Part shown: positions 28,271 through 49,246 of the stretch, one piece after another
How positions within the stretch are numbered: position 1 is the stretch's first letter
Layout of the letters: the number at the start of each line of letters is the position of its first letter
Source of the DNA: an uncultured Planctomycetaceae bacterium
Lineage (GTDB): Bacteria; Planctomycetota; Planctomycetia; Pirellulales; PALSA-1355
DNA: 64,000 nucleotides
Reading direction: 5' to 3'
NCBI GenBank assembly: GCA_937952415.1
Contig: CALFYT010000076.1
Location: forward strand, 5,733-69,732
Translations under genes and position numbers: made by a program
The notes under the pieces: model-generated
The model's database searches: none
The model's input: the letters and a program-made list of their open reading frames with translations, nothing else
What the model was told of the DNA's origin: nothing

Positions 28271-28503
28271 GAGACGCTCGCGACAACAAGTAATGTCCGC
28301 GACACACGGATCGCCTGCCGGTGCCGGTAGAAACCACGCGGTCGTATTAACCTGCGCTGGCCGCCGAAGTATAGCATTTTTCGACGTGTGCGAGGCGGAG
28401 AAGGGGTGTGCCCGTCAGTATGCCGAAATGGGCGGAGATTCTGGACGGCGCAGGGGGGATTGGCGTACCGCACCGTGCGTGCGCCGCCAGACGCACCGCG
28501 GCG

Positions 28504-29172: not shown

Positions 29173-29385
29173 GACACGGGGGACGCTTGCTGTTCGCCAG
29201 TCGTCGTGCGGTCTGCGCCGACTACCCGACCCTACATCATCCGCTCACGCTGGCCGCGTCTCTGTATGATACAGCACAAAATCTTCCAATCCTATGCAAC
29301 CGTCGATTCCGGCCGCGACGTCGCGTAGAATGGCACCACGTGGCCGGATCGAACGCAGTCAGTATCGCGTCGATACACGCCGGCC

Positions 29386-30849
29386 GTGAACACGCCCGCA
29401 AATGCACTCGAGCAATCCATGCCGCGCGCCATCCGACGAACCGTTTCGGCGATCATCGCCGCGCTGTTGGCCACGTGTGCATGCACTACGCTGCCTGCCG
29501 CCGACTATCCGCCGCAAGTCGGACAGCCGCATCCCGACGTGCTGCTGCCAAACATCGAGGACCGTGCACCGGTGGCCTTGTCGCAGTTTCGTGGAAAGAA
29601 ACTGTTGCTGATTCAATTCGCCTCGTGGTGAGCAGGCTGCCGACGGCACGTGCCGGTCTGGCACAAGGCAACCAAAGCGTGGCGCGAGCAGGGCAAGTTG
29701 GCCGTCGTGGGCATTACGCAGGAGCAGCATGCCCAGCGCTGCCGCCTGTTCGCTCAATGGCAGCACATCGACTGGCCGATCCTGCACGACCCGATCAACG
29801 TCACAGGACCCAGCGTGGTCCCGATCGTGATGGCGATCGACGAGCACGGAATCGTCCGCAGCGTGCGACCCAACGTTAGGACGTTCGAGCGTGATTTTCT
29901 CGACCGGACGTTTGAGCCGCCGACGGGCGATTCCGACGCCAAGCCGAATCCACTCGTCGCGCCCGACTTGGCGCATGCGAAATCCGCCGCGGAGCAGTCG
30001 AATACGGCCGCGGCTTGGAAACAGTACGGCGACGAGCTAGTTCTGTGGGGCGGCGACGAACAAATCAACAGCGCGATCGACGCCTATCGCCGCGCGCTGG
30101 CCATCGACCCGGACGACGGCGACGCGCACTTTCGACTTGGCGTTTGTTTCCGTCGCCGCAGCGAAACGTCCCTGCGCGACGACGGCGACTTCCAGCGGGC
30201 CGTCGACGCCTGGGGCCGGGGCCTCGACATCGATCCCAATCACTACATCCGCCGACGCCGCATTCAGCAGTACGGACCGCGGCTGGCCAAACCGTATCCG
30301 TTTTACGATTGGGTGCCGCGCGCCGCGGAAGCCATCCGTGCCCGGGGCGATGTGCCCATTGAGTTGGCGGTGCTTCCGACGGGCGCCGAAATCGCGCATC
30401 CGCAGCGTCGTTTCGTCGAGGCCGAACATAAGGACGCCTCACCGGATCCCGAGGGCCGCATCCATCGCGACGAGAATGAGCTGATCCAAACGGAAGTGGT
30501 CGTGGTTCCGGCGCGCATCAAGCCGGGCGAATCGGCCCGCATCCACGTCACCATGCGTCCCGACGACGGGCGACAGGCCCATTGGAACAACGAGAACGAG
30601 CCGGTCATGCTCTGGGTCGACGTGCCCGACGGATGGCAGACCGATCGCCGGCTGCTGACGGCACCGCTGGGCGACGACCCGGAATCGACCGAAACGCGAT
30701 CGATCGAACTGGAGCTCAAAGCGCCGGACAACGCCCAAGAAACGGTTCGCGTGCCGGCCTACTTGCTGTATTACGTGTGCGAGGGCGTCGACGGAACGTG
30801 TCTCTACCTGCGGCAGGACCTGCCGATCGACATCACACTGGCGCCGTGA
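29386..30849 (+). CDS. TlpA/ResA-like thiol:disulfide oxidoreductase selenoprotein (W-U-A-G-C; TGA 29629..29631 read as Sec) fused to TPR and a C-terminal DsbD-alpha-like domain
   Basis: ORFs 29386..29631 and 29650..30849 share a frame. The joined sequence is ...KKLLLIQFASW-U-AGCRRHVPVWHKATKAWREQGKLAVVGITQE... The start could also be ATG 29419 (MPRAIRR...). Hairpin 6 nt after the UGA. Confidence 0.75.
29638..29663 (+). promoter_or_regulatory. Putative bacterial SECIS hairpin for the TlpA-like gene
   Basis: UGCCGACGGC-[ACGU]-GCCGGUCUGGCA: 10 bp with two single-nt 3' bulges, starting 6 nt after the UGA. Confidence 0.45.
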
Positions 30850-30939
30850 TGACCGCAACGTGCTTGGCCGTTGGCGCGTTCCGGCTGCGTTCGTCCCATT
30901 GTCAAGGCTTAGCGACCAGCGCCTCTGCTAGTCGCCAGT

Positions 30940-33900: not shown

Positions 33901-35085
33901 GAACGGCACGACGGTGACTTGGCTGATCGTCACCCATTCGGGCCACTCAGCGCGCGGCGTTGCACGCAGGTGCCGAACCCAATCGTCGTGATTGATCTCG
34001 GTGCCAGTGAACGCGTCGAAACCGTTGGCTTCCGCGTAAGCAGCGGCATCTTCGCGAGACGCCTGCCGAAAGTCGACGACGGCTTTGGCCGGCAATCCCG
34101 GCGCGACTTCCTCGATCTTGCTCTTGATGTTCTTGATGGCCGCCAGCGGGTTGTAGCCGTATCGGACGACGGCGACGCCACCAACCGCCTCGGCGCCTCC
34201 TTTGTCGAGCGCGCCCCGTCGCAGTGCCGGGCCGAGCGTGACCTTGGCCACGTCCTTCAGATAGATTGGCACGTTGTCGTTGGTGGCAACGACACTGGTC
34301 TCGATGTCGCTGACGTTCTTGACGAACCCCAGTCCGCGGATGAAGTACTCTGCCTTGTTGATCTCGATGCTGCGGGCCCCCACGTCGATGTTCGACATCT
34401 TCACGGCCATAAAGATGTCGTCGATCATGACCCGCGCGGCCCGCATGGCATCGGGGTCAACGTCGATCTGGTATTCCTGGACAAATCCACCGACCGACGC
34501 GACTTCGCTGATTCCTTCGGCCGACAGCAGGGAGTAGCGGACGTACCAATCTTGAATGGTCCGCAACTCGTCGAGGTCCCACCCACCGGCCGGCTGTCCT
34601 TCGGGATCGCGCCCCTCGAGGGTGTACCAGAAGATCTGGCCAAGCGGTGTCGCGTCGGGGCCGAGCGTCGGGGTCACGCCCTCGGGCAGCGTGCCGCCAG
34701 GCAGGCTGTTGAGCTTCTCGAGCACGCGCGTCCGCGACCAGTAGAACTCGACGTTTTCTTGGAAGATGACATAGATCGTCGAGAACCCGAAGAAGGAATA
34801 GCTGCGAATCGTCTTCACGCCCGGCACGCCGAGCAGCGAGACGGTTAGCGGGTAGGTGATTTGATCCTCGATGTCCTGCGGCGAGCGGCCCATCCACTCG
34901 GTGAACACGATCTGTTGGTTTTCGCCAATGTCGGGAATCGCGTCCGTGGCCACGGGATCGCGCGGCAGTGGGCCGAGATCCCAGTCGAATGGCGCGACCA
35001 TTGCGCCCCAAGCGGTCACCGCGACAACGAACAGCGCGACGACCAGCTTGTTTTCCAAACAGAAACGTATGACCTTGTCGATCAT
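30940..35085 (-). CDS. Heavy-metal efflux RND permease (CusA/CzcA family), unusually long (1381 aa)
   Basis: MIDKVIRFCLENKLVVALFVV start. Conserved HME-RND blocks (GFSTIYVIFQE, GIAIAIGTMVDMGII, DEGSYLYMP). Extra TM pair and periplasmic insert relative to ~1045-aa CusA. Confidence 0.9.
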   Translation of the reverse strand: MIDKVIRFCLENKLVVALFVVAVTAWGAMVAPFDWDLGPLPRDPVATDAIPDIGENQQIVFTEWMGRSPQDIEDQITYPLTVSLLGVPGVKTIRSYSFFGFSTIYVIFQENVEFYWSRTRVLEKLNSLPGGTLPEGVTPTLGPDATPLGQIFWYTLEGRDPEGQPAGGWDLDELRTIQDWYVRYSLLSAEGISEVASVGGFVQEYQIDVDPDAMRAARVMIDDIFMAVKMSNIDVGARSIEINKAEYFIRGLGFVKNVSDIETSVVATNDNVPIYLKDVAKVTLGPALRRGALDKGGAEAVGGVAVVRYGYNPLAAIKNIKSKIEEVAPGLPAKAVVDFRQASREDAAAYAEANGFDAFTGTEINHDDWVRHLRATPRAEWPEWVTISQVTVVPFYDRTGLIYETLGTLNSALVAEILVTVIVILVMVMHLRSSLLISALLPLAVLMCFIAMKSFGVDANIVALSGIAIAIGTMVDMGIILCENILKHLDEAAPDENRLEVVFRASSEVASAVLTAVSTTIISFLPVFTMIGPEGKLFRPLAFTKTFALAASVIVALTIIPPAAHLLFTTKVTRRRLKQTFYAGLIVAGLVIGYGLVWWAGAIVVALGTYKLIEETLPQTYQPLRERMHRGGIVLANGAAVLLVGILLTEDWMPLGPASGLLRNLVFVAALIGGLLGFFQVFQRFLYRPILAWCLDHKLLFLCVPALILLWGLGVWLGPGFLFGRIPQEYDAQSLSEAEVSELSSLNRFKYELAAWRGKSWDQIDGLAGKLKWTLATTWQGFGKEFMPPLDEGSYLYMPTTMPHASIGEAMDVLSLQDRRIMAIPEVELAVGKIGRVRSPLDPAPVSMIETVVNYRSEYVVDKDGHRVNFRHDPDEVDWFQDKDGNLLSAADGRPYRVEGKFARDEAGQLIADPGGIPFRQWRPPLDPKLNGGREPWAGIEDPDDIWHEITEAAQVPGTTSAPKLQPIATRLVMLQTGMRAPMGVKVKGPDLETIEQVALEIESLLKQVPSVEASAVIADRVVGKPYLEIDFDREKIARYGLTIREVQDVVEVAIGGRTITTTVEGRERFPVRVRYMRELRNEIDSMKKILVPAKDGSHIPLGQVAEIKYVRGPQAVKSEDTFLTAYVLFDMKPGHAEVNVVEDCQRYLESKSEEGEFVLPPGVSYTFAGNYENQVRSTKTLMVVLPLALFIIFIILYFQFRSTITTSLVFSGIAIAWAGGFIMLWLYGQPWFLDFDVFGTSMQKLFQIHPINLSVAVWVGFLALFGIASDDGVVIATYLDQSFSKHDIRDARSARQATLEAGVRRVRPCLMTTATTILALIPVLTSTGRGSDIMVPMAIPSFGGMFIEVITMLIVPVLYCAVQEWKLRLGVHDPKFAADS

Positions 35086-35105
35086 CTTGAAACGGCAACG
35101 CGGGT

Positions 35106-37862
35106 TTAGGGATGGCTGTGGTCTGTGTGGGGCTCGGCCTGCGCCGACGGTTTCGATCCGCTGTGCGAAACCTTTTCCACACGGTCAGCACACTTGAGCA
35201 TGGCGGCGCCAAAGTAGGGATTGAGCGTATCGTCGTTGTCCTGATACCAGGTGGCTCCTCGGCCTTGAAAAGCCATCGAACAGTGGAGTTCAAAGATTGG
35301 ACCGGACTGGCCGAAGCCGAACGTCTTGGCCAGGACGCCGATCTCCTGGGATGCGGGATAGAACGTCTCGCGCATCGCCTCGATGCCTTCGGCCTGCTTG
35401 AGGCTGGCAATCAGTTTCTCAAGGTTCGCCTGTTCTTTTTGCCAGGCTTCTTTGGCAGGACCTTCGAGTGCCGTGTCATTAACGGCGTTGAGCGATGCAT
35501 TGAATTGGCCGAGTGAGTCCTGTGCGGATTTAAAGTCGTCCGCGGCCAGCGCCCGCTGAACGTTCAAGTACTGTTTCCATACACCGGCCAATTCACCTTG
35601 GAACTCCGCTGGCGCTTCGATACGTTCGATCTCTAGGTCCTGTTGCTGCATCAAGCCCAGTTGTTCCCGCATGCGGCGGACGTGGCCCTTAAGCGTCAGA
35701 AACGCTCGGTTGGCATCGACCATTTGGTCGGCGTCAGTTCCCTCGACGACATCGTTTCCGAAGAGCATGGCAAACTCCTTCCATAACATGCGCGGATGGC
35801 CGGTGACTTCGGTGTCGTCGACGGCCGCCAATTCCTCGCCGAGCTGCCTGAAAATCGTTGTGACCTGATCCAGGTCCTGGTCTTGCACGGCCGCAGCCAA
35901 CTTGTCGTACGTCGCGGCCAGATCAAGAAGTTGTTGGCGGAAGGCGGGCGGAAGGGCGACTGGGTGTCCGGCGTGCGGATCGTCCGACTTGCCTTCTGCT
36001 AGTTCGCCCTGCCCGCCATGATCGTGGCCACCGCCGCCGCCCCCCTCGGGTGTCATCATGCTGGGTTTGGCTTGAATTTGGATCTCGGAATCCAGCTTGA
36101 AGTTGCCCCGCGTCACCACCATCTCGCCTTCGTGCAATCCGTTGCGAACAAGATAGTATTCGCCGGCGCGTGGTCCCAAGACGATCTCGCGGCCTTCAAA
36201 CGTCGGGTTGTTGGCCGGCGCGAATTGCTCCCGGGCTAAGGTCATCGTTGCTTCGATGTCAGCAAGAACCTCCTTAGCTTGCTCCGCTGACCCGGCCTCG
36301 TAGCCCGCCAAAGCCTTCTCAGCGAGTCGATCGGCATAGTCGTTCCACAGATTTCGCGCGAACGCTGTTCCAGGCTGGTCGTACGGTCGGTCCAACATGT
36401 TGTTGTAGCTGGTAAACGCCTCGCGAATCTTTTCGAGGTCGCCTTCTTGCACAACGGCCGAAAGCGTAAGAAACGCCGGCTCGGCGAAGGAGGGCATGTT
36501 CGGCAACTGCACGTAGACGATCGCACGCGTGCCCGTAACCAACGCGGCCAAATAAGGCACCACCAGCGGAGGCTCTTCCGAGTCGGTCGACGGCGTTACG
36601 TAGCCCAGCGATTCGGCGCGCACCAGCGGCATCCCACAGATGTCGCACTGGCCGGGCTCGTCCTTGACGATCTCCGGGTGCATCGGACTGATCCACTTGC
36701 CCGCCAGGCTGGGATCCATCACTTTCCCGCCCGCGGCCACGACCGGACGCACGACGGCCCGGACAAACATGTCGGGCTTGAGCTTGCCGTCGCCATTCGG
36801 CACGTTGACGCGGACCTTCACCGTGCGCGTCTTATCGTCCAGCACCGGCTGAACGAACGCGATCCGTCCGTGAAACTCATCGCCCGGATAAGCCTCGGTG
36901 GTGATCGTCACGTCCTGGCCGTAGCGAATCCAAGGCAGGTCCGACTCATAGGCATCTAGATGGACCCAAACCTGACTCAGATCGGCGATCGTGTAGATAC
37001 GTTCGCCAAGCGCGACCCGCTCGCCCTGCTGTTTGAGCTTTTCGATCACGATGCCGCCCATCGGGGCATGGATCGTGATGTGATCCGATGGGGCGTCGCG
37101 CTTCTCGATTTCCGCGATTTGTTCTTCCGTCAGCCCCAGCAGCCGCAACTTCTCGCGGGCGGATTCGACGAGATTCACCTTGATGGTTGTCGACTCAGCG
37201 GCCCGACTGCGGTTGAACTTCTCAGCTTGAATCAGTTCCTGCTGCGCCGCGTAGAGCTGCTCGCTGTAGATATCCGCCAGGTGGTCACCCTGCCGGATTT
37301 CCACACCGGTGTAGTCGACATAAAGCCGGTCCAAGCGACCGGAAACCCAGGCCGTGATGTAGCCGAGGCGCGTCTCGTCGTAGTCGACACGGCCAACCAT
37401 CCTCACGTCGCGCGGTACGTAGCGCCGTTCGACCGGCGCGACCTCGATGTTCATCAGCGCCGCCGCCTCGGGGCTGAGGGCAAGCGTGCGCATCCCCCCG
37501 GCGGTTTGTGTTACGGCAATCAAATCCATCCCGCAAATCGGGCAATCGCCCGGCTTGGGCTGCCGGATCTGCGGGTGCATCGAGCACGTCCATGCCGTCG
37601 GGCCCGCGGCCGCGTCTGCGACAGCGTCAGCGTCGCTGCTCTTTTCTTCGGACGCATCGTGCCCGCCCCACAACAACCACGAGATGAACATTGCGGCGGC
37701 AAAGACGAGCGCGAATTGCGCAAGCCGAACGATCCTTGGATGTGCTGCGTAGCGGTTCCTGGTGGCCGTGGCACCGGGCTCGCGCGATGCATGTGTTTCG
37801 GGGTTCATACCAAAAGCTCCCGTCGTCGGCACTGCACGAGTGGGCGCGCACCAACGATTCAC
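35106..37862 (-). CDS. Heavy-metal RND periplasmic adaptor (CusB-like) with two heavy-metal-binding domains, a His/Gly-rich tract and a DUF3347-like C-terminus
   Basis: WTCSMHPQIRQPKPGDCPICGMDL and WISPMHPEIVKDEPGQCDICGMPL motifs. GGGGGHDHGG tract. C-terminal CSMAFQGRGATWYQ...NPYFGAAMLKC. Alternative start ATG 37808. Confidence 0.85.
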   Translation of the reverse strand: MNRWCAPTRAVPTTGAFGMNPETHASREPGATATRNRYAAHPRIVRLAQFALVFAAAMFISWLLWGGHDASEEKSSDADAVADAAAGPTAWTCSMHPQIRQPKPGDCPICGMDLIAVTQTAGGMRTLALSPEAAALMNIEVAPVERRYVPRDVRMVGRVDYDETRLGYITAWVSGRLDRLYVDYTGVEIRQGDHLADIYSEQLYAAQQELIQAEKFNRSRAAESTTIKVNLVESAREKLRLLGLTEEQIAEIEKRDAPSDHITIHAPMGGIVIEKLKQQGERVALGERIYTIADLSQVWVHLDAYESDLPWIRYGQDVTITTEAYPGDEFHGRIAFVQPVLDDKTRTVKVRVNVPNGDGKLKPDMFVRAVVRPVVAAGGKVMDPSLAGKWISPMHPEIVKDEPGQCDICGMPLVRAESLGYVTPSTDSEEPPLVVPYLAALVTGTRAIVYVQLPNMPSFAEPAFLTLSAVVQEGDLEKIREAFTSYNNMLDRPYDQPGTAFARNLWNDYADRLAEKALAGYEAGSAEQAKEVLADIEATMTLAREQFAPANNPTFEGREIVLGPRAGEYYLVRNGLHEGEMVVTRGNFKLDSEIQIQAKPSMMTPEGGGGGGHDHGGQGELAEGKSDDPHAGHPVALPPAFRQQLLDLAATYDKLAAAVQDQDLDQVTTIFRQLGEELAAVDDTEVTGHPRMLWKEFAMLFGNDVVEGTDADQMVDANRAFLTLKGHVRRMREQLGLMQQQDLEIERIEAPAEFQGELAGVWKQYLNVQRALAADDFKSAQDSLGQFNASLNAVNDTALEGPAKEAWQKEQANLEKLIASLKQAEGIEAMRETFYPASQEIGVLAKTFGFGQSGPIFELHCSMAFQGRGATWYQDNDDTLNPYFGAAMLKCADRVEKVSHSGSKPSAQAEPHTDHSHP

Positions 37863-37930
37863 TCAACAAACCAGAAGAAGGACTACGACCGATCAGAAGA
37901 TAGGCGCATACCGGTAGCGCCCCAGTCGCG

Positions 37931-38335
37931 TCAGGCGTCCAGACGGACGTGGCAAGCCTGCAGTGTGCATCCAGCAGGCGAGAGAAGCGTTTCGGACGAA
38001 ATCAGACCGCGGGAGACGGCCGGTCCGTCGCCTTGTCGGTAGGCAATCGCATCGTGCGCAAGCGCGAGCGACAAAGTGTCAATCCGACGGGCGTCGGGTC
38101 CGCCAGCAGGCACGGAGTTTGACTTTGCCGGCGGCGCCTGTTTGCTCACGCAGCAACCGGTGTCGCAGGATTGGCCATCGGCGGGCTTACAACAGCAGTC
38201 CGTCGGCTGCGGCTTCGATGTTTGTCCAAATACGGCGGGCTGCTGGCAGCCAAACGGCGTCAGCCCGAGTCCACCGACGCTGACCACCAGGGCCAAGACC
38301 AGCAGACAACGAAATGTGGGGTGAAGATGCGACAT
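37931..38335 (-). CDS. Small secreted Cys-rich protein, first gene of the heavy-metal RND operon
   Basis: Start MSHLHPTFRCLLVLALVVSVGGLGL (signal). CCCKPADGQSCDTGCCV cluster. Same strand as the adaptor gene, 68 nt upstream of it. Confidence 0.55.
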   Translation of the reverse strand: MSHLHPTFRCLLVLALVVSVGGLGLTPFGCQQPAVFGQTSKPQPTDCCCKPADGQSCDTGCCVSKQAPPAKSNSVPAGGPDARRIDTLSLALAHDAIAYRQGDGPAVSRGLISSETLLSPAGCTLQACHVRLDA

Positions 38336-38481
38336 CAATGCAATTATAGGCAAGTTTTCGAGCGTCGGCGCCTCTACAAACGCGCATCGCTTAACCACAA
38401 TTCTGCCCGAAAATGGCCGATTTGGCCATCGGCGGCCCGCAATGACCGGGCTCCGGACGCCCATCCGATGCATCACCCAAA

Positions 38482-40200
38482 TTGGGGGTAGTGCGGATGG
38501 CTGTGTCGTCCGACGGAGCGTCAGCCTGGCAGACCTTGCGGTTTGTACCGCTTGTGACCGGAGGGACGGGGCAATTGCTCCGCGTCGCCGGCTCGGCTGG
38601 GCATTCCGGCTGCACGTTAGGCCTACGGTGGCCGATACAACCGATAGACTCTGCCCGAGTCACATTTCCCTATTCCGCACTTCGGCTCGCCCTGTCCAGC
38701 TCCCGTCCGGGGGTAGTTCGCTTGATCCGCACGTCGATCGATTCCGATCGGCCGCCGCGATTTGTCGGCTGGCCTGTCTTCGTCCTATGCGCCTTGATGC
38801 TAGGCGCGTTGGCGGGCTGTCGGACCTCGCGCAAAGTGCAGACGCCCGAGTTCGCATCGCTTGCCAGGCTTCCTCTCGTGGCGTCCGTGTCGCCCGCGGC
38901 GGTCGCGCGAGCTGTCGATCCCCAAGTCCCGCAACTGGCCGGGCCGCATCCCGTTGACCAGTACGTTCAGTTCGCTCTGCTCCAGAACCCAGACATCCAA
39001 TCCAAGCGCAACCGGGTGGAAGCAGCCGCGCAGCGAGTTCCCCAAGCCGCGAGCCTGCGCGACCCCACAGCAACTGTCTCTGGCTATCCGTTCTCGTCCT
39101 ATGCGCTGCAGACGGCCAACGGCCGACTAACGGCCAACCTGGCGGCGTCGCAAGAAGTGCCTTGGTTCGGAAAGCTAGAAACACGGGCCCAGGCCGCTGA
39201 AGCAGAAGTCAACGTTGCCCGAGCTGAGTTGGCCGCCACGGAACTTGAAGTGATCGAGCAGGTGAAGCGGGCCTACTACGAGCTGCACTTTGTCGAGAAA
39301 TCGATCGCGATCACGGCGGAAAGCCGCAGACTGGCAGTCGATCTGAGTCGAATCGCCGAAGCACGGTTCAAAGCCGCCCAGGTCAGCCAACAGGACTATC
39401 TGCGGGCGGAAGTAACCGTCTACAACGTCGATGCCGAGCTGATTCGCCTGCGCGAGGAGTTGCAATTGGCCCAGGCACGTCTGGCAAGACTCCTGCACAT
39501 CTCGCCCGACACGCCGCTGCGAACCCTGCCGGAGCTCGCCGATGAGGAATTGCCAACCGACTTGCAGCGACTCTACGAGCGCGCGATCGCCGCGCGGCCC
39601 GAACTACACGCGCAGCTTGCCGCTATTCAGCGCGATCGGCATGCGGTGCGACTTGCGCAGCTCCAATACTTTCCCGATGTAACGTTCAGTGGCAGTTGGG
39701 GAGCCGTAACCACCAACCGCGCAGTGGCGTTGGCGGCCGACGGCCGCGATTTCGCTCAGTTCGGCATCATGGCCAACATTCCGATCTATCGGAAGCGGCT
39801 TCAAGCCGGCGTGCGCGAGGCCGAGTCGAAGACAGTCGCCAGCGCCCGCCAGTACGATTCGCTCCGCGACAAGACCCAGCAGGAAGTCAAGGATCTGTTC
39901 GTCGAGATCAATGCGCAAAGAGATCTGTTACGCGTCTTCGACACACAAATCGTCCCGGTGGCCGAACAAACGTTGCGTGTTTCAATTCCGGCCTACGAGT
40001 CCGGCCAGACCGACGTCCTGCAGCTCTTGGACAACTGGCGCGACGTGCTGCGATTTCAGATCATGCAACAGCGGCTCGAAGCCCAAGTCCGCCAGTCGCT
40101 GGCCTCGTTGGATCGAGTGATCGGTACATTCACAGTATCTGACCCAACCACGAGGCGTCTGCCCGAAACCATTCCCCCGCCCGAGGGTTCAACGCCATGA
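38482..40200 (+). CDS. TolC-like outer-membrane efflux protein (OMF) lipoprotein
   Basis: Two OEP-type repeats with coiled coils. Lipobox LGALAGC. The true start is probably internal (e.g. TTG 38722), because the first ~80 codons of the ORF lack a leader-like sequence. Confidence 0.85.
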   Translation: MGVVRMAVSSDGASAWQTLRFVPLVTGGTGQLLRVAGSAGHSGCTLGLRWPIQPIDSARVTFPYSALRLALSSSRPGVVRLIRTSIDSDRPPRFVGWPVFVLCALMLGALAGCRTSRKVQTPEFASLARLPLVASVSPAAVARAVDPQVPQLAGPHPVDQYVQFALLQNPDIQSKRNRVEAAAQRVPQAASLRDPTATVSGYPFSSYALQTANGRLTANLAASQEVPWFGKLETRAQAAEAEVNVARAELAATELEVIEQVKRAYYELHFVEKSIAITAESRRLAVDLSRIAEARFKAAQVSQQDYLRAEVTVYNVDAELIRLREELQLAQARLARLLHISPDTPLRTLPELADEELPTDLQRLYERAIAARPELHAQLAAIQRDRHAVRLAQLQYFPDVTFSGSWGAVTTNRAVALAADGRDFAQFGIMANIPIYRKRLQAGVREAESKTVASARQYDSLRDKTQQEVKDLFVEINAQRDLLRVFDTQIVPVAEQTLRVSIPAYESGQTDVLQLLDNWRDVLRFQIMQQRLEAQVRQSLASLDRVIGTFTVSDPTTRRLPETIPPPEGSTP

Positions 40201-40481
40201 GTCACGCGCCAAGGTTGGCTTCAGCCCGAGCAAACAACGAAAGCGCACCTGGTCGGCGACGGCGAGCGCTGCCAGGGCTCGCCACGTATCACATCGTGGC
40301 TCTTGCCTTGTTATTTGCAAGCATTCTCATTCTCGGATGCGCTCGCCAGTACCACTGGTACGACTGCGGTTGCGGCTGCGTCAACTACCACTATTGTCCA
40401 CCGCCTCCTTTGCCGTACACACCGTACTGCACGTGCCCGACGCCGGTTAGCAGCGCATACCTCGAGGCGGAAAGCGACTGA
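40197..40481 (+). CDS. Small Cys-rich lipoprotein translationally coupled to the OMF gene
   Basis: ATGA start/stop overlap with 38482..40200. TM/lipobox ILILGC. The mature ~47 aa carry 8 Cys plus a Pro/Tyr-rich stretch (CARQYHWYDCGCGCVNYHYCPPPPLPYTPYCTCP). Confidence 0.55.
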   Translation: MSHAPRLASARANNESAPGRRRRALPGLATYHIVALALLFASILILGCARQYHWYDCGCGCVNYHYCPPPPLPYTPYCTCPTPVSSAYLEAESD

Positions 40482-40512
40482 TCGCAGGCGCGACACGTCT
40501 CAGATTCACAAG

Positions 40513-40609
40513 CGGGAGTGGATGGGAATCGAACCCACCTGAAATCTGTTTGACGGATTTCACAACGGGTTTGAAGCCCGCGGCCGCCACCAGGCGTGCT
40601 GACACTCCC
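40513..40609 (-). tRNA. selC: tRNA-Sec (anticodon UCA)
   Basis: 97 nt: GGGAGTG...CACTCCC-G acceptor. Anticodon loop CTTCAAA on a GCGGG/CCCGT stem. 7-bp long variable arm TGAAATC/GATTTCA. T-loop TTCGATT. Acceptor + T helices sum to 13 bp. No encoded CCA. Lies 86 nt downstream of selA. Confidence 0.85.
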
Positions 40610-40695
40610 GAAATACGCTTCCCTTCTAGGCGTTATCCGCGATTCTATTGTCTAGGCAGCATGCCGCTACCGGGCTGACGTCGATATCGACAACG

Positions 40696-42156
40696 TCAAC
40701 CGGTTGCCGCGGCTACCAGCGCACGTTGCAGTCGCTCGTCTTGTTCGGCCAGTACGGCGCGCAGGTCGGCAATCAACCGCCCGCCTTGCAAGCGAGCCAC
40801 GACTGGCGGCGATCCGCCTCGCATCCGTTGGGCTAATGCCTCGTCCGACCTGTCATCGCAGCGGATCGCTACCGCGACGCTGGGCAAACCCTGATCCGGC
40901 AGCGAACCACCGCCGACGTAGGCAGTCGTCGCGATCACCTCGGCCGATGCGCCTGGCACCTGCTTAACCAGTGTCGCGGCGACCTGCCCGGCCCGTTGTT
41001 CGAGTTCGGCCCGCGGTGTGCAGATCATCGTCCACAGCGGCAGTTCCGCGGCCGCCAGTTCCGGATCTTCCCAGGCCGACAGCGTTGCGCTCAATGCGGC
41101 CAGGGTCAGCTTGTCGACCCGCAAGGCACGCATCAACGGATTGCGCTCGATGCGCTCGATCGCGGCCTTGCGCCCCACGATCAATCCGGCCTGTGGCCCG
41201 CCCAGCAACTTGTCACCGCTAAACAGCACGAGATCACAACCCGCGTCCACCGACGCGCGCACCTTCGGCTCGTCTGCAAGTCCCGCATCGCGCGGATCGA
41301 AGATCGCGCCGGAGCCAACGTCGTGAATCACCGGCAGGTTGTGGTGCTTGCCTAACGCGACGAGTTGCTCGATCGTCGGTGCATCGGAAAAACCGGCGAT
41401 CCGGTAGTTCGACGGATGGACTTTCAGCAGGGCCGCGGTCTGGTCGTCGATCGCGGCGGCGTAATCTTCGATGCGCGTTCTGTTCGTCGTGCCGACTTCG
41501 CGCAGTTGGGCGCCGCCGGCGGCCATGACCTCGGGCAATCGGAAACTGCCGCCGATTTCGATCAGCTCGCCGCGTGACACGACGACCTGTCTGCCAGCAG
41601 CCAGCGCATTTAGCGAAATGACCAGCGCGGCCGCGTTGTTATTCACGACCGTCGCGCTTTCCGCTCCGGAAACCTTGCAGAGCTGCTCGCGGACCGCGTC
41701 CACGCGACGTCCGCGCTGCCCGCCTTCCAGATCTAGTTCGAGCGCCGTATAACCGGCAGCCGCTTGCTGGATCGCATCGAGGGCCCGGCGCGACAGTGGA
41801 GCGCGGCCCAGACCGGTGTGCAGCAAAATGCCCGTGGCGTTGATCACTTCGCCCAGCGGCGAGGTTTGCGATCGTTCGAGCTGCGCGCCGACGCGGCGGA
41901 TCAAATGCGCGATCGAGAGCTCGGCATACCCGTTGGCCTGCGCGATTTCGCGGCGGCATTGATCGAGCACCGCACGCGCGGCGGCCACGACCACGGCCCG
42001 CGGCACGTGCTCCTTCCAACCGGACAACTGGGGTGCATCGACCAGGTCGTTGATCGCCGGCAACTCGCGATATCGGTTGCTTGCGCTATCGGCGGTGGAT
42101 GATGGTTTTTCGGCCGGCATGATGGGCAATTCGGTACCGCGGCGGTCGCCTGACAC
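40696..42156 (-). CDS. selA: L-seryl-tRNA(Sec) selenium transferase
   Basis: YRELPAINDLV N-terminus, NATGILLHTGLGRAPL and PLP-lysine block FSGDKLLGGPQAG. Alternative start ATG 42120. Confidence 0.9.
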   Translation of the reverse strand: MSGDRRGTELPIMPAEKPSSTADSASNRYRELPAINDLVDAPQLSGWKEHVPRAVVVAAARAVLDQCRREIAQANGYAELSIAHLIRRVGAQLERSQTSPLGEVINATGILLHTGLGRAPLSRRALDAIQQAAAGYTALELDLEGGQRGRRVDAVREQLCKVSGAESATVVNNNAAALVISLNALAAGRQVVVSRGELIEIGGSFRLPEVMAAGGAQLREVGTTNRTRIEDYAAAIDDQTAALLKVHPSNYRIAGFSDAPTIEQLVALGKHHNLPVIHDVGSGAIFDPRDAGLADEPKVRASVDAGCDLVLFSGDKLLGGPQAGLIVGRKAAIERIERNPLMRALRVDKLTLAALSATLSAWEDPELAAAELPLWTMICTPRAELEQRAGQVAATLVKQVPGASAEVIATTAYVGGGSLPDQGLPSVAVAIRCDDRSDEALAQRMRGGSPPVVARLQGGRLIADLRAVLAEQDERLQRALVAAATG

Positions 42157-42192
42157 TTGGAAATTATACCACCTGCCGCAGGACGGCGCATC

Positions 42193-44145
42193 CTAACGCA
42201 AGACGCGGAGGTCGCCCTGACGTTGGGTCATGCCGATTCGGTCGAGATGTTCGCAGATCGGCACGGCAAACTTGCGGCTCGTGCCGAGCACGTCGCGAAT
42301 TTGGCTGACCGTCATCCCGCTACCGTCTGCCAACCGGGTGCGCAGTTGATCGCGCATGGCCGTTTCCACGTCGCGGTGCAGATAGAGCTTGTCGTCCAGT
42401 CGTACCGCTTCGCCGCACGCCACGCAATACTCCAAAAGTCTGCGCACTTCGTCCTCGCGCGCTCCGTAGGTTTTTGCCATTTCGGCCGGCCCGGGCGGCT
42501 GCAAACCAGACTCTTGCAACACGGCGAGGATCCGCTCGTGCAACTGGCGCTGGCCGGCCGAAAGTTCCGGGGCGTACCCGGGCAGCGCCATCGATTGCTG
42601 ATCGCCGACGAGCGCGCCGCCCTCAGCAAGCCGGTCGATCAGGGCATCGCTCACGTTCGTGTCGCCCTCAACGGCGTGCAACGCGATCACGCGGTCGCGC
42701 GGCACGGTGGTCTTTAGCGTGGACTGATTGTGCAGTTGTTCGACGATCTTCAGCACGCGCTGTTCTTCGCGTTGCACGACGTCGCGATGCAGGCGCAGCG
42801 TGCGGCGCGGCTTGACGTCCAGCGCGACGATTGTGCCCGACGACTCCAGGGTCCGAATCGCGGTGCTGCATTGCTCCAAGTCGAGCCGCGCGTCGCGGCA
42901 CAGGTCAAGCTCCGTCCAGTCGCCCGTAGCAAAGAAGTAGATCGCCGTTTGGGCCCGCTCGACTTCGTCGTCCGAGAGCAGCCCGGCCAGCCGCTCGATC
43001 TGTTGCGGTTGTCGCGGCGTGATGCGCCCCGGACAGGGCTGCAAGACCACGCCCCCGCCGATCGTGACCAACGGCGACTCGCTGCGCACGACGAACGGTT
43101 GGCCCGAAGCACTCACCGTCGGTGTGGCGCAGTGCAGTTGAGCCCGTGAACGCCCGCCCGGTTCGATCGGCTTTCGATCGAGCGTGGCCACCGTGACCAT
43201 GACTTCTTGAGTGCCCAGGTAGAGCCGCTGGCGCGAGCGATGCCGGATGGCGCGCGGGCTGTCGTCCAGCACGTGGAGTTCAACGGTCAATAGCTTCGAG
43301 GGGCGCAAGTAGGTGGGCGTGGCAATTTCGTGCCCGCGAGTGATTTCGCTGTGATGCACGCCCAGCAAGTTCACGGCGGCCCGTTGCCCACGCCCGACCA
43401 TGTCGCTGTCCTGTCCATGATTCTGCAAGCCGCGGATCGCGAGTTTCTTGCCTGCTGGCCACCAGTCGACTTCGTCACGGACGCGCAACGTGCCGGACCA
43501 CACGGTTCCGGTCACGACGGTGCCTCGCCCTTCGACCGTGAAGGCCCGATCAATCGGCATACGAAACACACTCTGGTCGTCACTCGGCGCCACGCGACGG
43601 CAAACGTCGTGCAGCGCGTCGCGCAACTGTTCGATGCCCTGTTGCGCTTCGTCGCTGATTGCGGTTCGCACGACCGGCGCGTCCTCCAAGAAGGTCCCGG
43701 CAACCAGCCGCCGTAGTTCCTCCTCGACCAGCTCGGCCCAGTCGGGCTCGACCCGATCACACTTCGTGATGGCCACAACACCGTGCCGCACGTCCAACAG
43801 TCGCATGATGGCCAGGTGCTCGCGCGTCTGAGGCATGATCGAATCGTCGGCCGCAACGACCAATAGCGCCAAGTCAACGCCGACCGCACCGGCCAGCATG
43901 TTCTTGACGAAGCGCTCGTGGCCTGGCACATCGACCACGCCCAATCGATAGCTTCCCACGTCGAGCGTGGCGAAACCGATGTCGATCGTGATGCCGCGCT
44001 GTTTTTCGGCCGGCAAACGGTCGGTGTCGATGCCGGTCAGCGCGCGCACCAACGCTGTTTTGCCGTGATCGATGTGCCCAGCCGTTCCCAAAATCAGAGT
44101 GCGGGCCTGCGCCGGCGCTGTCGTTTCGGAGGTCATGCGTGTCAT
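42193..44145 (-). CDS. selB: Selenocysteine-specific translation elongation factor
   Basis: GTPase motifs [19 protein letters not shown] and TKCD. Long C-terminal winged-helix extension of the kind that binds SECIS. Confidence 0.9.
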
Positions 44146-44244
44146 TGTAGCAGCCGTGACGCGCCGCGGGCCGAACCTCCGTGCGTGGAACCGGCCCGCG
44201 CCCGTCGATACAATGGCGCGCTCTTGGTCCTCGATTCGCCCGAC

Positions 44245-46461
44245 ATGAATTCCAAACTACCGCGATACGATCTTGTTCTGATTGGTGCCGGCCACACCAA
44301 TGCCCACGTGTTGCGGATGTGGCGCATGGCGCCGCTGGCCGATACCCGGCTGACCTGCATCACCGATCGGTACACGACCGCATACTCAGGCATGCTGCCG
44401 GGCACGCTGGCCGGATTGTATGGGCCGGATGAAATGCACATCGACTTGGTGCGGCTGTGCGCCGCGTCGGGTGCGCGACTGATTCGTGGCGAAGTGACCG
44501 GACTGGACGTGGCCAATCAGCGCGTCTTGCTCAATGATCGGCCGCCCGTACCGTTCGACGTGTTGTCAATCGGCATCGGGTCGGTGCCCAAACTTCCGCC
44601 CTCGGGCACATCGCAACCGCAGGTCGTCACGATCAAGCCGATGCAGACCTTTCTGGACCGGCTCGGACATCGGTTCGCCGAAGTGCAATCCGCCGACGAT
44701 GCCCGAACGTGGCAACTGGCCGTCGTCGGTGCGGGCGCCGGCGGGGTCGAGATCGCCTTCTGTCTGGCGTCGTACATGCGGCGGAATCATCCCGACCGCC
44801 GCTACGAATTGATGTTGATCGACAGCGGCGACGAGATTTTGCGCGGAGCCAGCGCGGGCATGATTCGACACGCGCGCCGCGAACTGGCGGCCCGCGGGGT
44901 CAAGCTCGTGCTGGGCCGCGCGGTCAGCGACGTGTGCGACGGGCAATTGCTGGTCGGAGATGAGGTGCTCCCGGTCGACGTGGCGATTTGGGCCACCGGC
45001 GGTGTCGCGCCTCCACTGTTACGCGAGTTGGGCCTGCCGACAGATGACCGAGGTTTCCTGCTGACGCGCGCAACCTTGCGAACGGTTGCCGACGCTCCGG
45101 TGTTCGTTGTGGGTGACTCGGGCACGAGCATCGAACATCCCACACCTAAGGCCGGCGTGTTTGCGGTCCGCCAGGGACCGGTGCTCTGGGAGAATCTACG
45201 TCGCCAGCTACATGGCGACCCGCTCAATCCGTACATTCCCCAACGCGGCTTCATGAAGTTGTTGGGCACGGGCGATCGTCGCGCGATTCTCGACTACAAG
45301 GGCATGAGCTTTCACGCCCGCTGGTGTTGGACGCTCAAGGACGCGATTGACCGCCGCTTCATGCGCAAGCTGCAAAACTATCGGCCCAGCATGATGGCGC
45401 CCGCGGCCGATGCGACCGAAATGCAGTGTGCTGGATGCGGCGGAAAGTTGGCCGGATCGGTGCTCAGCCGCGCGCTCGCCCGATTGAACGTGCCGCCGTC
45501 GGACCACGTCGTCGTTGGACTCGACCGTCCGGACGACGCCGCGATCGTGCGCATGCCGCACGCAGGGCCCGTCGCGGCCACGGTCGACTTCTTCTCGCCG
45601 TTCGTCGACGATCCGTATCTGGTGGGCCGGGTGGCGGCGATCAACGCCGTCAGCGATCTGTTGGCAATGGGTTCCACGCCGACCGCGGCGCTGGCGATGG
45701 CCGCCGTCGAGTCTGGTCCGCAGCAACAGCAGGAACAGTATTTGTTCGAGCTGCTGGCCGGCGCGCTGCGCGAATTCGAAGTGCATGGCGCGGCGTTGGT
45801 CGGCGGACACACGATCGAAAGCCCCAAGCCGCTGGTCGGTTTTTCCGTAATTGCCGCGTCCGGCCCTCGGCCGCAACTCAAAGGCGCGCTACGCCCTGGG
45901 GACTCGCTCGTGTTGACCAAACCATTGGGCGCCGGAATCCTGCTGGCTGCACACATGCGGGCCCAATGCCGGGCCGTGTGGTTTGCCACCTTGTGCGAGA
46001 CGCTCCTTGCGAGCAATCGCGACGCAGCGCAAACCGCTGAGCGCTTTGACACCAGCGGGCTAACCGACGTGACCGGCTTCGGCCTGGCCGGGCACTTGCT
46101 CGAGATGCTGCGGGCGGCGCGTGTCTCGGCCGAGATCTGGCTGGATCAACTCCCCCTGTTGCCCGGCGCCGTGGAACTAGCGTCGGCCGGCATCGAAAGC
46201 TCGCTAGCTCCGGCCAATCGTGCCGCGGAAACGGAAATCGACGCTGACGACGACGCGACCTCCGCCGCGCCGTACGCCATTCTGTTCGATCCGCAAACCG
46301 CCGGCGGACTGCTGGTGGGCGTGGCGCCAAGCGAAGCCGAAGCGTTGGTGGATTGTCTGTCCCCGCACGCACCCGGCGTGCGTGTTATCGGCCGCGTGGC
46401 GACCGCCGGCGAGCATTGCCGATTGAAGGTCTTGCGCGAAAAGCCACGATCCGGCACGTGA
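44245..46461 (+). CDS. selD: Fusion: FAD/NAD(P)-dependent pyridine-nucleotide-disulfide-oxidoreductase-like (NDH-2-like) domain :: selenide, water dikinase
   Basis: N-terminal DLVLIGAGHTNAH and LAVVGAGAGGVE Rossmann motifs. SelD part starts ...TEMQCAGCGGKLAGSVL (Cys-type active site, Lys conserved), followed by an AIR-synthase-like fold. The first 109 codons of ORF 43918.. overlap selB and are rejected. Confidence 0.9.
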   Translation: MNSKLPRYDLVLIGAGHTNAHVLRMWRMAPLADTRLTCITDRYTTAYSGMLPGTLAGLYGPDEMHIDLVRLCAASGARLIRGEVTGLDVANQRVLLNDRPPVPFDVLSIGIGSVPKLPPSGTSQPQVVTIKPMQTFLDRLGHRFAEVQSADDARTWQLAVVGAGAGGVEIAFCLASYMRRNHPDRRYELMLIDSGDEILRGASAGMIRHARRELAARGVKLVLGRAVSDVCDGQLLVGDEVLPVDVAIWATGGVAPPLLRELGLPTDDRGFLLTRATLRTVADAPVFVVGDSGTSIEHPTPKAGVFAVRQGPVLWENLRRQLHGDPLNPYIPQRGFMKLLGTGDRRAILDYKGMSFHARWCWTLKDAIDRRFMRKLQNYRPSMMAPAADATEMQCAGCGGKLAGSVLSRALARLNVPPSDHVVVGLDRPDDAAIVRMPHAGPVAATVDFFSPFVDDPYLVGRVAAINAVSDLLAMGSTPTAALAMAAVESGPQQQQEQYLFELLAGALREFEVHGAALVGGHTIESPKPLVGFSVIAASGPRPQLKGALRPGDSLVLTKPLGAGILLAAHMRAQCRAVWFATLCETLLASNRDAAQTAERFDTSGLTDVTGFGLAGHLLEMLRAARVSAEIWLDQLPLLPGAVELASAGIESSLAPANRAAETEIDADDDATSAAPYAILFDPQTAGGLLVGVAPSEAEALVDCLSPHAPGVRVIGRVATAGEHCRLKVLREKPRSGT

Positions 46462-46553
46462 ATCGAAAAACTTGATTGGGCGCGGGCTGCCAGCGTACAA
46501 CAACGAGCGTATGAGCGCGCGGCCGGCGTGCCCGGACCACAGGAGTCTCGACC

Positions 46554-47792
46554 ATGCGAGCCGACAACAACGCGTCGAAGCACAAACGACCGAATTGCAC
46601 GCGAGCCCGCGTTGCTCGCACGCTGGTCGGTCGATCGCTGGCCGCCGTGGCCATCATTTACCTCGCGGTGGCCTTTTGCCCGGCGGCGGAGCCGGCGCAC
46701 TACTATCCCGGCAATTGGGGGCAGTGGGAAACGCGCACGCCGGCCGAAGTCGGGATGAATCCGGATCGACTGGCCAAGGCGATCGCGTACTCCAAAAGCC
46801 ACGAAACCGACCGCCCCAAGGATCTCGATCGGGCGATCCGCATGTCGATCGCCTCGCAGGCCTACGACGAGTTGATCGGGCCGACCAAGCCGCGCGGGTC
46901 GAACAACGGCCTGATCGTCCGCAACGGCTATATCGTCGCCGAGTGGGGTGACACGCGCCGTGTCGACATGACCTTTAGCGCTACCAAGAGCTACCTGTCG
47001 ACGACCGCCGGACTGGCGTGGGATCGCGGGATGATTCACGATCTGCACGATCCGGTGAAGCGGTACGTCGCCGACGATCTGTTCGCCTCGCAGCACAACG
47101 GCCTGATCACGTGGCACATGCTGCTCAACCAAACCAGCGAGTGGGAGGGCACGCTCTGGGGCAAGCCGGATTGGGCACCTGTCTGGAACGGCACGATGCG
47201 CGAGCTGCACATGCCGGGCACCCATTGGCAATACAACGACGTGCGCGTCAATTGCCTGGCTGCCGCGTTGCTGCAAGTGTGGCGCGAGCCACTGCCACGC
47301 GTGCTAAAGCGACTCGTCATGGATCCGATCGACGCGTCGCCAACGTGGCGCTGGCACGGATACCGCAACTCGTGGATCGAGCTAGACGGCACGCGCATGC
47401 AATCGGTCAGTGGTGGTGGGCACTGGGGCGGGGGGCTCTGGATCAACACGCGCGACCATGCCCGCTTCGGATACTTGTTCCTGCGGCGCGGCAAGTGGAA
47501 CGACAAGCAGTTGATCTCGGAAGAATGGATCGATCGGATGACCACGCCCACCGACATCAAGCCGACGTATGGCTACATGTGGTGGCTCAACCCGGACCAA
47601 GAGCGCATCGCCGGCGCGCCGGAGACAAGTTTCGCGGCAGTGGGCGCGGGGACCAACATGGTTTGGATCGATCCGCAACACGATCTGCTAGTGGTGGTCC
47701 GTTGGATCGATCCAGCACACGACGCACAGTTCATCAAGCTGGTCGTCGACGCCCTCGAGCCGGAACCGGCCGAATCCAATCAATCCGAGTGA
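46554..47792 (+). CDS. Beta-lactamase-family serine hydrolase
   Basis: Signal anchor. S-x-x-K motif FSATKSY. C-terminal blocks GGGHWGGGLWIN and GAGTNMVWIDP. Confidence 0.8.
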   Translation: MRADNNASKHKRPNCTRARVARTLVGRSLAAVAIIYLAVAFCPAAEPAHYYPGNWGQWETRTPAEVGMNPDRLAKAIAYSKSHETDRPKDLDRAIRMSIASQAYDELIGPTKPRGSNNGLIVRNGYIVAEWGDTRRVDMTFSATKSYLSTTAGLAWDRGMIHDLHDPVKRYVADDLFASQHNGLITWHMLLNQTSEWEGTLWGKPDWAPVWNGTMRELHMPGTHWQYNDVRVNCLAAALLQVWREPLPRVLKRLVMDPIDASPTWRWHGYRNSWIELDGTRMQSVSGGGHWGGGLWINTRDHARFGYLFLRRGKWNDKQLISEEWIDRMTTPTDIKPTYGYMWWLNPDQERIAGAPETSFAAVGAGTNMVWIDPQHDLLVVVRWIDPAHDAQFIKLVVDALEPEPAESNQSE

Positions 47793-47800
47793 GGCCCGCG

Positions 47801-49246
47801 ATGTTTCCAGCGATCCGAATGTTCACCTGTGCGCTTGCGGCGGCAGTCGCGCTGTTCGACGTGGCGTGCGGCGCCGGCGAAGTAGCTCCCGCGTCGGAGG
47901 CGACGCGCGCCGAGAACGGATTGGCGATGTACGCCAAGCTGCTCTGCTCCGGCGTATTCGTCGTGGGCAGGGAGCCTGATGAGTTCGTGCGCAACGATTT
48001 GCAACGTGCCGGACAGGGCTTGCCGGAATGGAGCGAGATCGAAATCGACGTCGACCGCAAGCGAAAGTCCGTCACGCTCAAGGCCCCGGGCATCCCCGCC
48101 CGCACGGCCGTATTCTGCGGCGACCAGGGTTGTGTATTGCTGCCGCGCGGCGCGGCGAACGTGTTCTTCCAGCCGGTGCGGCTTGAGTCCTCGTTGCCCG
48201 ATCGCGCGACCCAGCCTTGGCCGCAGGGCGATCGACTCGACACCACGACCCAACCAGACCATGTCGATGCGGATGCACTTGCTGCTGCGCTGGATATTGC
48301 ATTCGACGACGCCGACCAGGACGTGCCGCAAAAAACTCGGGCACTGCTGGTCGTCTACCGCGGCCAGATCGTGGCCGAGCGCTACGCGCCCGGCTTCGAC
48401 CGCCGCACCCGGCACATCTGCTGGTCGATGGGCAAGAGCATCACGTCGGCCCTGATCGGCATCCTGGTCGGCAACGGAGACTTCAAAGTCGACGATCCGG
48501 CGCCGATCGCCGCCTGGCGCCAAGCCGACGATCCGCGTGGCCGGATTACGATTTCCGACCTTCTGCACATGAGCAGCGGACTCGATTTCGGTCGCCCGAA
48601 CGACCCGGCGGCGATGTTCACCGCCGCGGATCATCACCGGGCCGTCTACTTCGGCGCCGTCGACGTGTTCGACTATTGCACGGGCCGCGAGCTGGAGCAC
48701 GCGCCGAACACGGTCTGGCGCTACCGCAATTGCGATCCGCTGAGCCTGGGGATGATCGTTCGCCAAATGGTTGAATCGCGCGGCGGGTCGTACCTGGCGT
48801 TTCCGCAGCGCGCGCTGTTCGACAAGATCGGCATCCGCGACATGGTGCTCGAGACCGACCCGTACGGCAATTTCATCATGACCGGCTTCGAGTACGGTAC
48901 GGCCCGCGATTGGGCCCGCTTCGGACTGCTGCACTTGCAAGACGGTGTTTGGAACGGTGAGCGCATTTTGCCCGAAGGCTGGATCGACTATATCACCCGA
49001 CCTGCACCGGCCGATCCGGATCAGAAGTACGGAGCCCTTTTTTGGCTCAATCGGGGAGGCCGTTATGAGACGCTGCCCCGCGATATGTACTGGGCCGCAG
49101 GACATCACGGCCAGATCACGCTGGTCATTCCGTCGCGCGAGATGGTCATCGTGCGGCAAGGACACAGCGCACAAGGCGGCTTCGATCCCTACTGGGAACA
49201 GGTGGTGGGACGGATTCTATCGGCGTGCAAGCCAGATGGCGCGTAA
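47801..49246 (+). CDS. Beta-lactamase-family serine hydrolase (second, divergent copy)
   Basis: ATG 47801 gives signal MFPAIRMFTCALAAAVALF. S-x-x-K motif WSMGKSI. The upstream part of ORF 47018.. overlaps the previous gene out of frame. Confidence 0.8.
   Translation: MFPAIRMFTCALAAAVALFDVACGAGEVAPASEATRAENGLAMYAKLLCSGVFVVGREPDEFVRNDLQRAGQGLPEWSEIEIDVDRKRKSVTLKAPGIPARTAVFCGDQGCVLLPRGAANVFFQPVRLESSLPDRATQPWPQGDRLDTTTQPDHVDADALAAALDIAFDDADQDVPQKTRALLVVYRGQIVAERYAPGFDRRTRHICWSMGKSITSALIGILVGNGDFKVDDPAPIAAWRQADDPRGRITISDLLHMSSGLDFGRPNDPAAMFTAADHHRAVYFGAVDVFDYCTGRELEHAPNTVWRYRNCDPLSLGMIVRQMVESRGGSYLAFPQRALFDKIGIRDMVLETDPYGNFIMTGFEYGTARDWARFGLLHLQDGVWNGERILPEGWIDYITRPAPADPDQKYGALFWLNRGGRYETLPRDMYWAAGHHGQITLVIPSREMVIVRQGHSAQGGFDPYWEQVVGRILSACKPDGA

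Follow-up and report, generated by a model that had tools for sequence, protein, structure and literature searches.

The selenocysteine (Sec) locus described here lies in a 64,000-nucleotide stretch of DNA (the window; contig CALFYT010000076.1 of assembly GCA_937952415.1) from an uncultured Planctomycetaceae bacterium of the order Pirellulales, and it comprises selA, selB, selC (the gene of tRNA-Sec) and a selD fused to an Ndh-like oxidoreductase domain. Its closest described counterparts are the selAB/selC/selD system of Escherichia coli, the Ndh-SelD fusion proteins of other bacteria and the Sec machinery of planctomycetes. In E. coli the gene order is selA-selB, with selC and selD located elsewhere. 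The window holds the same four components as E. coli, belonging to the same families and carrying the same catalytic motifs, and it shares with that system the C-terminal winged-helix extension of SelB as well as the positioning of selenocysteine insertion sequence (SECIS) hairpins immediately 3' of the UGA. Unlike E. coli, the window has the order selB-selA-selC, divergent from selD, in a single 6-kb cluster, and its SelD is fused to the Ndh-like domain and shows CxxC where the E. coli enzyme has G-x-x-C.

Zhang and Gladyshev (Zhang et al. 2008, PMC2398784) gave the first account drawn on here of fusions of this latter kind, which represent ∼40% of the Cys-type SelDs in the Global Ocean Sampling (GOS) ocean metagenome; all of them carry the active-site CxxC, which is rare in single-domain SelD (PMC2398784). 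Ndh-SelD is by far the commonest SelD fusion, scattered across bacteria, and genomes encoding it always had Sec machinery and selenoproteins (Mariotti et al. 2015, PMC4561486). The window protein agrees with these fusions in combining the same COG1252/NDH-2-like domain with a Cys-type, CxxC-containing SelD, and in its occurrence in an aquatic bacterium equipped with Sec machinery and selenoproteins; there is no difference of substance, and the identity to the nearest species-representative protein is only 67%. From the same phylum, a full set of selA, selB, selD and tRNA-Sec is documented by Kim et al. (2016, PMC4807772), who report for a Rhodopirellula genome an operon-like clustering of the Sec genes that is unlike the arrangement in Proteobacteria. 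The family TIGR04369, named 'fusion_not_SelD', has the same two-domain architecture; its model gives the window protein 425 bits, below the cutoff of 700. The locus is therefore already known in kind, its components, the Ndh-SelD fusions, the planctomycete Sec machinery and the stem variants of tRNA-Sec all having been published. Standard annotation models capture all components and the fusion, and the locus adds no new biology.

Composition of the selenocysteine locus

We are highly confident in reading the locus, from its gene content and conservation, as a working set of genes for selenocysteine insertion in the genome of a bacterium of the Pirellulales (Planctomycetota), with at least two client genes situated 10-12 kb away. 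Its elements, in window coordinates, are as follows.

40513..40609, minus strand: selC, tRNA-Sec, with UCA anticodon, G73 discriminator and long variable arm (ARAGORN and Rfam RF01852)
40696..42156, minus strand: selA, L-seryl-tRNA(Sec) selenium transferase, a pyridoxal 5'-phosphate (PLP) enzyme (TIGR00474, Pfam, PDB 3w1h)
42193..44145, minus strand: selB, Sec-specific elongation factor, with GTPase domains I-III and a C-terminal winged-helix SECIS-binding region
44146..44244, no strand assigned: divergent selB-selD intergenic region of 99 bp, with a conserved -10-like TAnAATG at 44209..44215 (+)
44245..45384, plus strand: Ndh-like FAD/pyridine-nucleotide-disulfide oxidoreductase domain of the fusion (TIGR03169, Pyr_redox_2)
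45385..46461, plus strand: SelD (selenide, water dikinase) domain of the fusion (TIGR00476, AIRS, AIRS_C, PDB 3u0o)

The three genes selB-selA-selC thus occupy the minus strand and ndh-selD diverges from them on the plus strand, all within the 6-kb cluster; the gene coordinates set tRNA-Sec 86 nt from selA and selA 36 nt from selB, and separate the start of selB from that of the divergent selD by 99 nt. A preliminary description of this DNA, prepared from the sequence, had proposed a complete and contiguous four-part set for recoding UGA to Sec, composed of selA and selB on the minus strand, a 97-nt tRNA with UCA anticodon 86 nt past selA, and a selD fusion starting ∼100 bp from selB. Every element is found where that description placed it: the list of open reading frames (ORFs) and the family models agree on selA (40696..42156) and selB (42193..44145), ARAGORN and RF01852 both recognise the tRNA (40513..40609), and the gene at 44245..46461 encodes a fusion of the known Ndh-SelD type, at a measured distance of 99 nt. 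The searches with TIGR00474, TIGR00475 and TIGR00476 all gave scores above the curated equivalog cutoffs of NCBI and far beyond what would be expected by chance, and two independent methods identify the tRNA as tRNA-Sec. Classification of SelA and SelB as other PLP enzymes or as paralogues of EF-Tu does not improve on the assignment, their own models being far ahead.

The SelA protein of 486 aa, whose start is either GTG 42156 or ATG 42120, scores 546 bits on TIGR00474 (cutoff 268) and 457 bits on Pfam SelA, and it includes the N-terminal tRNA-binding domain (Se-cys_synth_N, PF12390) at residues 29-68. Among solved structures the best match is SelA from Aquifex aeolicus (3w1h, 368 bits), with which the PLP-lysine motif SGDKLLGGPQAG is identical. 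A relationship to the DgaE/SelA-related (DgaE-like) proteins was considered and discarded, the score there being 76 bits compared to the 546 bits on TIGR00474. SelB, of 650 aa, scores 360 bits on TIGR00475 (cutoff 242) and exhibits the Pfam domains GTP_EFTU (PF00009), GTP_EFTU_D2 (PF03144), Beta-barrel_SelB (PF25461) and SelB-wing_3 (PF09107); its GTPase motifs, TKCD included, are seen directly in the translation. The ribosome-bound E. coli SelB (5lzb) is the best solved structure, matched with 233 bits over residues 17-650, whereas the best EF-Tu structure reaches 156. The possibility that SelB is a paralogue of EF-Tu was rejected, with the EF-Tu models at 164-179 bits, under their own cutoffs, and the C-terminal winged-helix domain present.

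Established knowledge of these families would have the pathway proceed as follows. The tRNA-Sec (UCA) would receive serine from the ordinary seryl-tRNA synthetase; selenophosphate would be formed from selenide and ATP by the SelD domain; SelA with PLP would use the selenophosphate for conversion of Ser-tRNA-Sec into Sec-tRNA-Sec; and GTP-bound SelB would associate with both the Sec-tRNA-Sec and the SECIS hairpin just 3' of the in-frame UGA, so delivering the former to the ribosome. For the Ndh-like flavoprotein domain the likeliest role, proposed beyond that established scheme, would be to pass reduced selenium to the CxxC of SelD by way of NAD(P)H, flavin adenine dinucleotide (FAD) and its conserved cysteines. 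The window has a G+C content of 62.5% and contains no selU/ybbB.

Client genes, relatives and integrity of the locus

A scan covered the whole window for in-frame TGA codons that have at least 40 stop-free codons on both sides and a coding-like G+C content at third codon positions (GC3). Six matches were obtained. Two of them, at 28894..28896 (-) and 29629..29631 (+), belong to the clients listed below; the other four were set aside, being antisense to real genes or lacking a redox context, and the window gave no further credible coding TGA.

28504..29172, minus strand: client 1, secreted deiodinase-like selenoprotein, with the Sec TGA at 28894..28896 and a SECIS-like hairpin at ∼28860..28887
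29419..30849, plus strand: client 2, selenoprotein composed of a thioredoxin fold (ResA/TlpA-like) and tetratricopeptide repeats (TPR), with the Sec TGA at 29629..29631 and a SECIS-like hairpin at ∼29638..29664

In both clients the TGA occupies the catalytic Cys/Sec position. Client 1 encodes 222 aa with an N-terminal hydrophobic leader and the Sec context ALIFGSYT-U-PPFRHQ, the predicted Sec being residue 93 when numbered from ATG 29172; when Cys is substituted for Sec, Pfam T4_deiodinase aligns across the TGA (residues 53-216, 120 bits) and NF038285 deiodinase_rel scores 233 bits. A hairpin, GGCACC-AGGUU-GGUGCC, begins 13 nt past the U of the UGA. The TGA, its flanking motif and the downstream hairpin are all retained in 5/5 orthologues (L023-L027), which come from Planctomycetota, Brocadiaceae and Armatimonadota, and deiodinase-like proteins are a listed family of prokaryotic selenoproteins (PMC2398784; PMC9312934).

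Client 2 encodes 476 aa with the Sec context LIQFASW-U-AGCRRHVP, where the predicted Sec is residue 71 when numbered from ATG 29419. Pfam AhpC-TSA and Redoxin extend across the TGA, followed by the TPR repeats and then an uncharacterised C-terminal region, and a hairpin with a GGUCU-type loop comes after the TGA; in one subgroup of the family another type of hairpin occupies that position. The family is widespread: species-representative genomes of at least five phyla yielded 360 detected relatives of client 2, of which the best 80 were retrieved (L029-L108; Planctomycetota, Acidobacteriota, Gemmatimonadota, Verrucomicrobiota and Armatimonadota). The codon is TGA in all of these best 80 of 360, and none has Cys. 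One of the six search patterns used in the retrieval demanded a Cys codon at the Sec position, so that the sampling is biased, if anything, against TGA. The best NCBIfam model for client 2, WAxxUGC_long, reaches 55 bits compared to a cutoff of 300, that is, no curated NCBIfam model covers the family, which as judged from its retrieved members may be an essentially obligate-Sec family without specific curation. The two clients are divergently transcribed, with ∼246 bp between them.

The preliminary description had further concluded that the organism reads UGA as Sec, and had proposed the TGAs at 28.9 and 29.6 kb as marking selenoprotein candidates. The latter proposal is borne out at 28894..28896 (-) and 29629..29631 (+), both conserved in relatives, and the conclusion about UGA gains strong reinforcement from these same two genes, through the protein domain that runs across the TGA, the hairpin and the conservation in orthologues. 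For annotation, the locus decides the question of UGA in this genome: it can encode Sec, and the deiodinase-like and thioredoxin-TPR genes are therefore to be recorded as selenoproteins, not as pseudogenes or split ORFs.

The linkage of the genes is conserved in relatives. A scan of the species-representative genomes with the fusion protein recovered Planctomycetota only, the best matches being metagenome-assembled genomes of Pirellulales at 63-67% identity; a search of the assembly collection for the exact sequence of this protein gave no record. The four closest loci (L001, L012, L014, L010) likewise have selB-selA divergent from ndh-selD, and in three of them (L001, L012, L014) tRNA-Sec also follows selA. 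Fuerstiella and Planctomycetaceae show instead a co-directional selB-selA-ndh-selD, with tRNA-Sec downstream of selD in three such loci. In JBFWOR010000001.1 (L012/L024/L029), both client genes directly adjoin tRNA-Sec, selA and selB. The assembly itself is supported, since three independent biofilter metagenome runs from 2018 cover the locus: they contain 92-96% of the sampled window words, and their contigs extend over 28400..46500 at ∼5-10x, with variants absent from both TGAs and from the tRNA in the three runs.

Several observations weigh against a functional Sec-insertion locus. A search for RNA runs that contain the locus gave none; scanning 40300..44400 for sigma-70 promoters and intrinsic terminators turned up neither a consensus promoter nor a terminator; the tRNA, with a U·C apposition at the eighth acceptor position, does not fit the canonical bacterial 8/5 fold cleanly; and neither of two papers on the fusions (PMC2398784, PMC4561486) describes an experimental test of the role of the Ndh-like domain. 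The first of these would suit a locus in decay, in which the Sec trait is being lost, the genes are inactive and the two TGA-containing genes are pseudogenes, and loss of the trait is indeed frequent in bacteria (PMC1794560). Against such a remnant stand several features: all ORFs are intact and of full length when compared to their models, with the catalytic motifs kept; the tRNA pairs well and covaries; TGA, flanking protein sequence and hairpins are conserved in 5/5 and 80/80 relatives of the two clients; and neither frameshift nor polymorphism is seen at the TGA and tRNA sites in the three metagenome runs. Decay of the locus is accordingly considered very improbable, and a working Sec-insertion locus is preferred.

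The Ndh-SelD fusion protein

The fusion is encoded within the ORF 43918..46461 (+), and its start is placed at the conserved ATG 44245, where the N-terminal pattern M-[NHQ]-[ST]-x-L-P is common to 15 relatives. The resulting 738-aa protein scores 375 bits on TIGR03169 Nterm_to_SelD (cutoff 310) and 276 bits on TIGR00476 selD (cutoff 125), and it matches Pfam Pyr_redox_2, AIRS and AIRS_C. E. coli SelD (3u0o, 150 bits) is the best solved structure for the SelD domain. Alignment of CAGCGGK with GAGCGCK of 3u0o equates Cys398 with Cys17, and Lys401 with Lys20, of the E. coli enzyme. The complete active-site motif, C395-A-G-C398-G-G-K401, is located at 45427..45447, and CxxC is present in 16/16 fusion proteins compared. 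For the N-terminal domain the nearest solved structures are the type II NADH dehydrogenases 9pxk and 4nwz, at only ∼60 bits. Two of its cysteines are strongly conserved, Cys38 in 15/16 and Cys173 in 16/16 fusions, and both are found also in 4/4 stand-alone homologues of the domain, not fused to SelD (L018-L021).

The conserved Cys38 and Cys173 would fit a thiol-based redox role of the Ndh-like domain, and a function of the domain in the reduction or delivery of selenium is weakly suggested. In its most specific form the proposal would be that the domain is a dedicated NAD(P)H/FAD-dependent selenium reductase which, using Cys38 and Cys173, transfers selenide or a perselenide straight to the CxxC that is specific to SelD in the fusions. 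We regard this as a tentative idea, with rather less than an even chance of being correct. If true, it would imply that selenophosphate synthesis in these aquatic bacteria is independent of selenium delivery by NifS-like proteins or thiols. The idea of a selenium reductase has been proposed since 2008, and the window adds to it only one more example and the observation on the conserved cysteines.

A different reading of the fusion takes it as a member of the TIGR04369 'fusion_not_SelD' family that makes no selenophosphate, acting for example on sulfur, and it would leave the locus without a true SelD. Over the full protein length no model has a lower E-value than TIGR04369; yet its 424.7 bits lie well under the curated cutoff of 700, whereas TIGR00476 and TIGR03169 both pass theirs, and the active-site residues Cys398 and Lys401 are the counterparts of Cys17 and Lys20 in the E. 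coli enzyme. Relatives, moreover, have the gene in linkage with selA and selB, and the genomes with Ndh-SelD fusions were all found to have Sec machinery and selenoproteins (PMC4561486). Membership of the window protein in this family of oxidoreductase/SelD-related fusions was therefore rejected, the TIGR04369 score being under its cutoff with the true SelD model and TIGR03169 passing, and a selD-less locus of this sort appears highly unlikely. The fusion is retained as a true SelD joined to an Ndh-like domain.

tRNA-Sec, intergenic region and neighbouring genes

ARAGORN reports the tRNA as tRNA-SeC with anticodon tca (position 36) at 40512..40609 (-), the sole tRNA of the 64-kb window, and RF01852 places it at 40514..40609 with 67.4 bits compared to a gathering threshold of 47 (E = 1.4e-11); no other Rfam match in the window exceeds its gathering threshold. 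With the discriminator G at 40513 counted in, the gene has a length of 97 nt; CCA is not encoded, the bases after the discriminator being C-T-T. The predicted minimum free energy (MFE) is -43.6 kcal/mol (z = -3.9). When the window gene was aligned with those of six other planctomycete loci (7 genes, 85% mean column identity), the MFE cloverleaf had 97.4% of its cells paired, with compensatory changes on both sides in 11 pairs. None of 500 shuffles matched the observed pairing, and slid controls all dropped to ∼50%.

The D stem, of 6 bp (G11-C27 to C17-G22), has A13 bulged out and is closed by the 4-nt loop UGGU; compensatory changes are seen in 4 of the 9 pairs of the variable arm. Eight residues separate the 5-bp T stem from G73, giving an acceptor-plus-T stack of 13 positions. 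Seven Watson-Crick pairs make up the acceptor stem, the eighth position being U opposite C in 7/7 planctomycete genes. A sixth G-C pair in the T stem is possible in an alternative fold, which would be 7/6 instead of 8/5 with a mismatch; covariation cannot choose between the two because both rest on invariant columns. Bacterial tRNA-Sec genes that look functional are documented to depart from 8/5, for instance by a 7-bp acceptor stem or a bulge in the D stem (PMC5330540), and we regard the peculiarities of the acceptor and D stems as minor variation that does not speak against function as tRNA-Sec. That the tRNA might be a non-canonical UCA suppressor or an allo-tRNA-like species, no genuine substrate of SelA and SelB, finds a basis in the mere seven Watson-Crick acceptor pairs with U·C, the possible 7/6 arrangement and the D-stem bulge, but it is scarcely credible given a RF01852 score 20 bits over gathering, the SeC call by ARAGORN, the 13-position acceptor-plus-T stack, the 6-bp D arm with its 4-nt loop, the location 86 nt from selA, the linkage of the same tRNA to sel genes in six relatives, and the precedent for such 8/5 deviations, D-stem bulges included (PMC5330540).

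Each of the three metagenome runs also has other contigs that agree with the window only along a 30-nt segment at the 3' side of tRNA-Sec (T arm and acceptor) and diverge beyond it (positions 40510 and 40539), an indication that those samples include other Sec-decoding organisms with this conserved tRNA segment.

In the selB-selD intergenic region, an alignment with three relatives shows T79, A80, A82, A83, T84 and G85 of the TAnAATG element to be invariant; from the element to the selD ATG downstream the distance is 30 nt. The minus strand has another conserved block, GCTGCTACAATG, at 44143..44154, within which the selB start codon lies in three of the four genomes. Both are possible promoter or initiation signals, and a selD promoter that uses TAnAATG (44209..44215) is weakly suggested. 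The terminator scan of 40300..44400 returned a single terminator-like site, below the expectation from shuffles. Transcription of selB, selA and selC probably occurs together, divergently from ndh-selD; with neither a consensus promoter nor a terminator in the scan, this operon structure is deduced from the spacing of the genes.

Between the client genes and the sel locus, the window has a CusCBA-like heavy-metal efflux block of ∼9.6 kb (30940..40481), which separates the two and includes the following genes.

30940..35085: pump of the resistance-nodulation-division (RND) type, unusually long at 1381 aa
35106..37862: CusB-like fusion protein of 918 aa, with heavy-metal-binding domains and DUF3347
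38482..40200: outer-membrane factor

Because the clients adjoin the sel genes in JBFWOR010000001.1 and do not in the window, the comparison suggests either an insertion of the efflux block in the window or a deletion in JBFWOR010000001.1. Directly downstream of selD are two adjacent genes of the beta-lactamase family (serine hydrolases), at 46554..49246 (+), with no evident link to selenium metabolism. On the other side of the locus, a 94-aa Cys/Pro-rich ORF at 40197..40481 (+), CGCGCVNYHYCPPPPLPYTPYCTCPTP, has no Pfam match and a possible lipobox, ILGC; it shares 4 nt with the outer-membrane factor gene at the stop of the latter, and a gap of 31 nt separates its end from the 3' end of tRNA-Sec.

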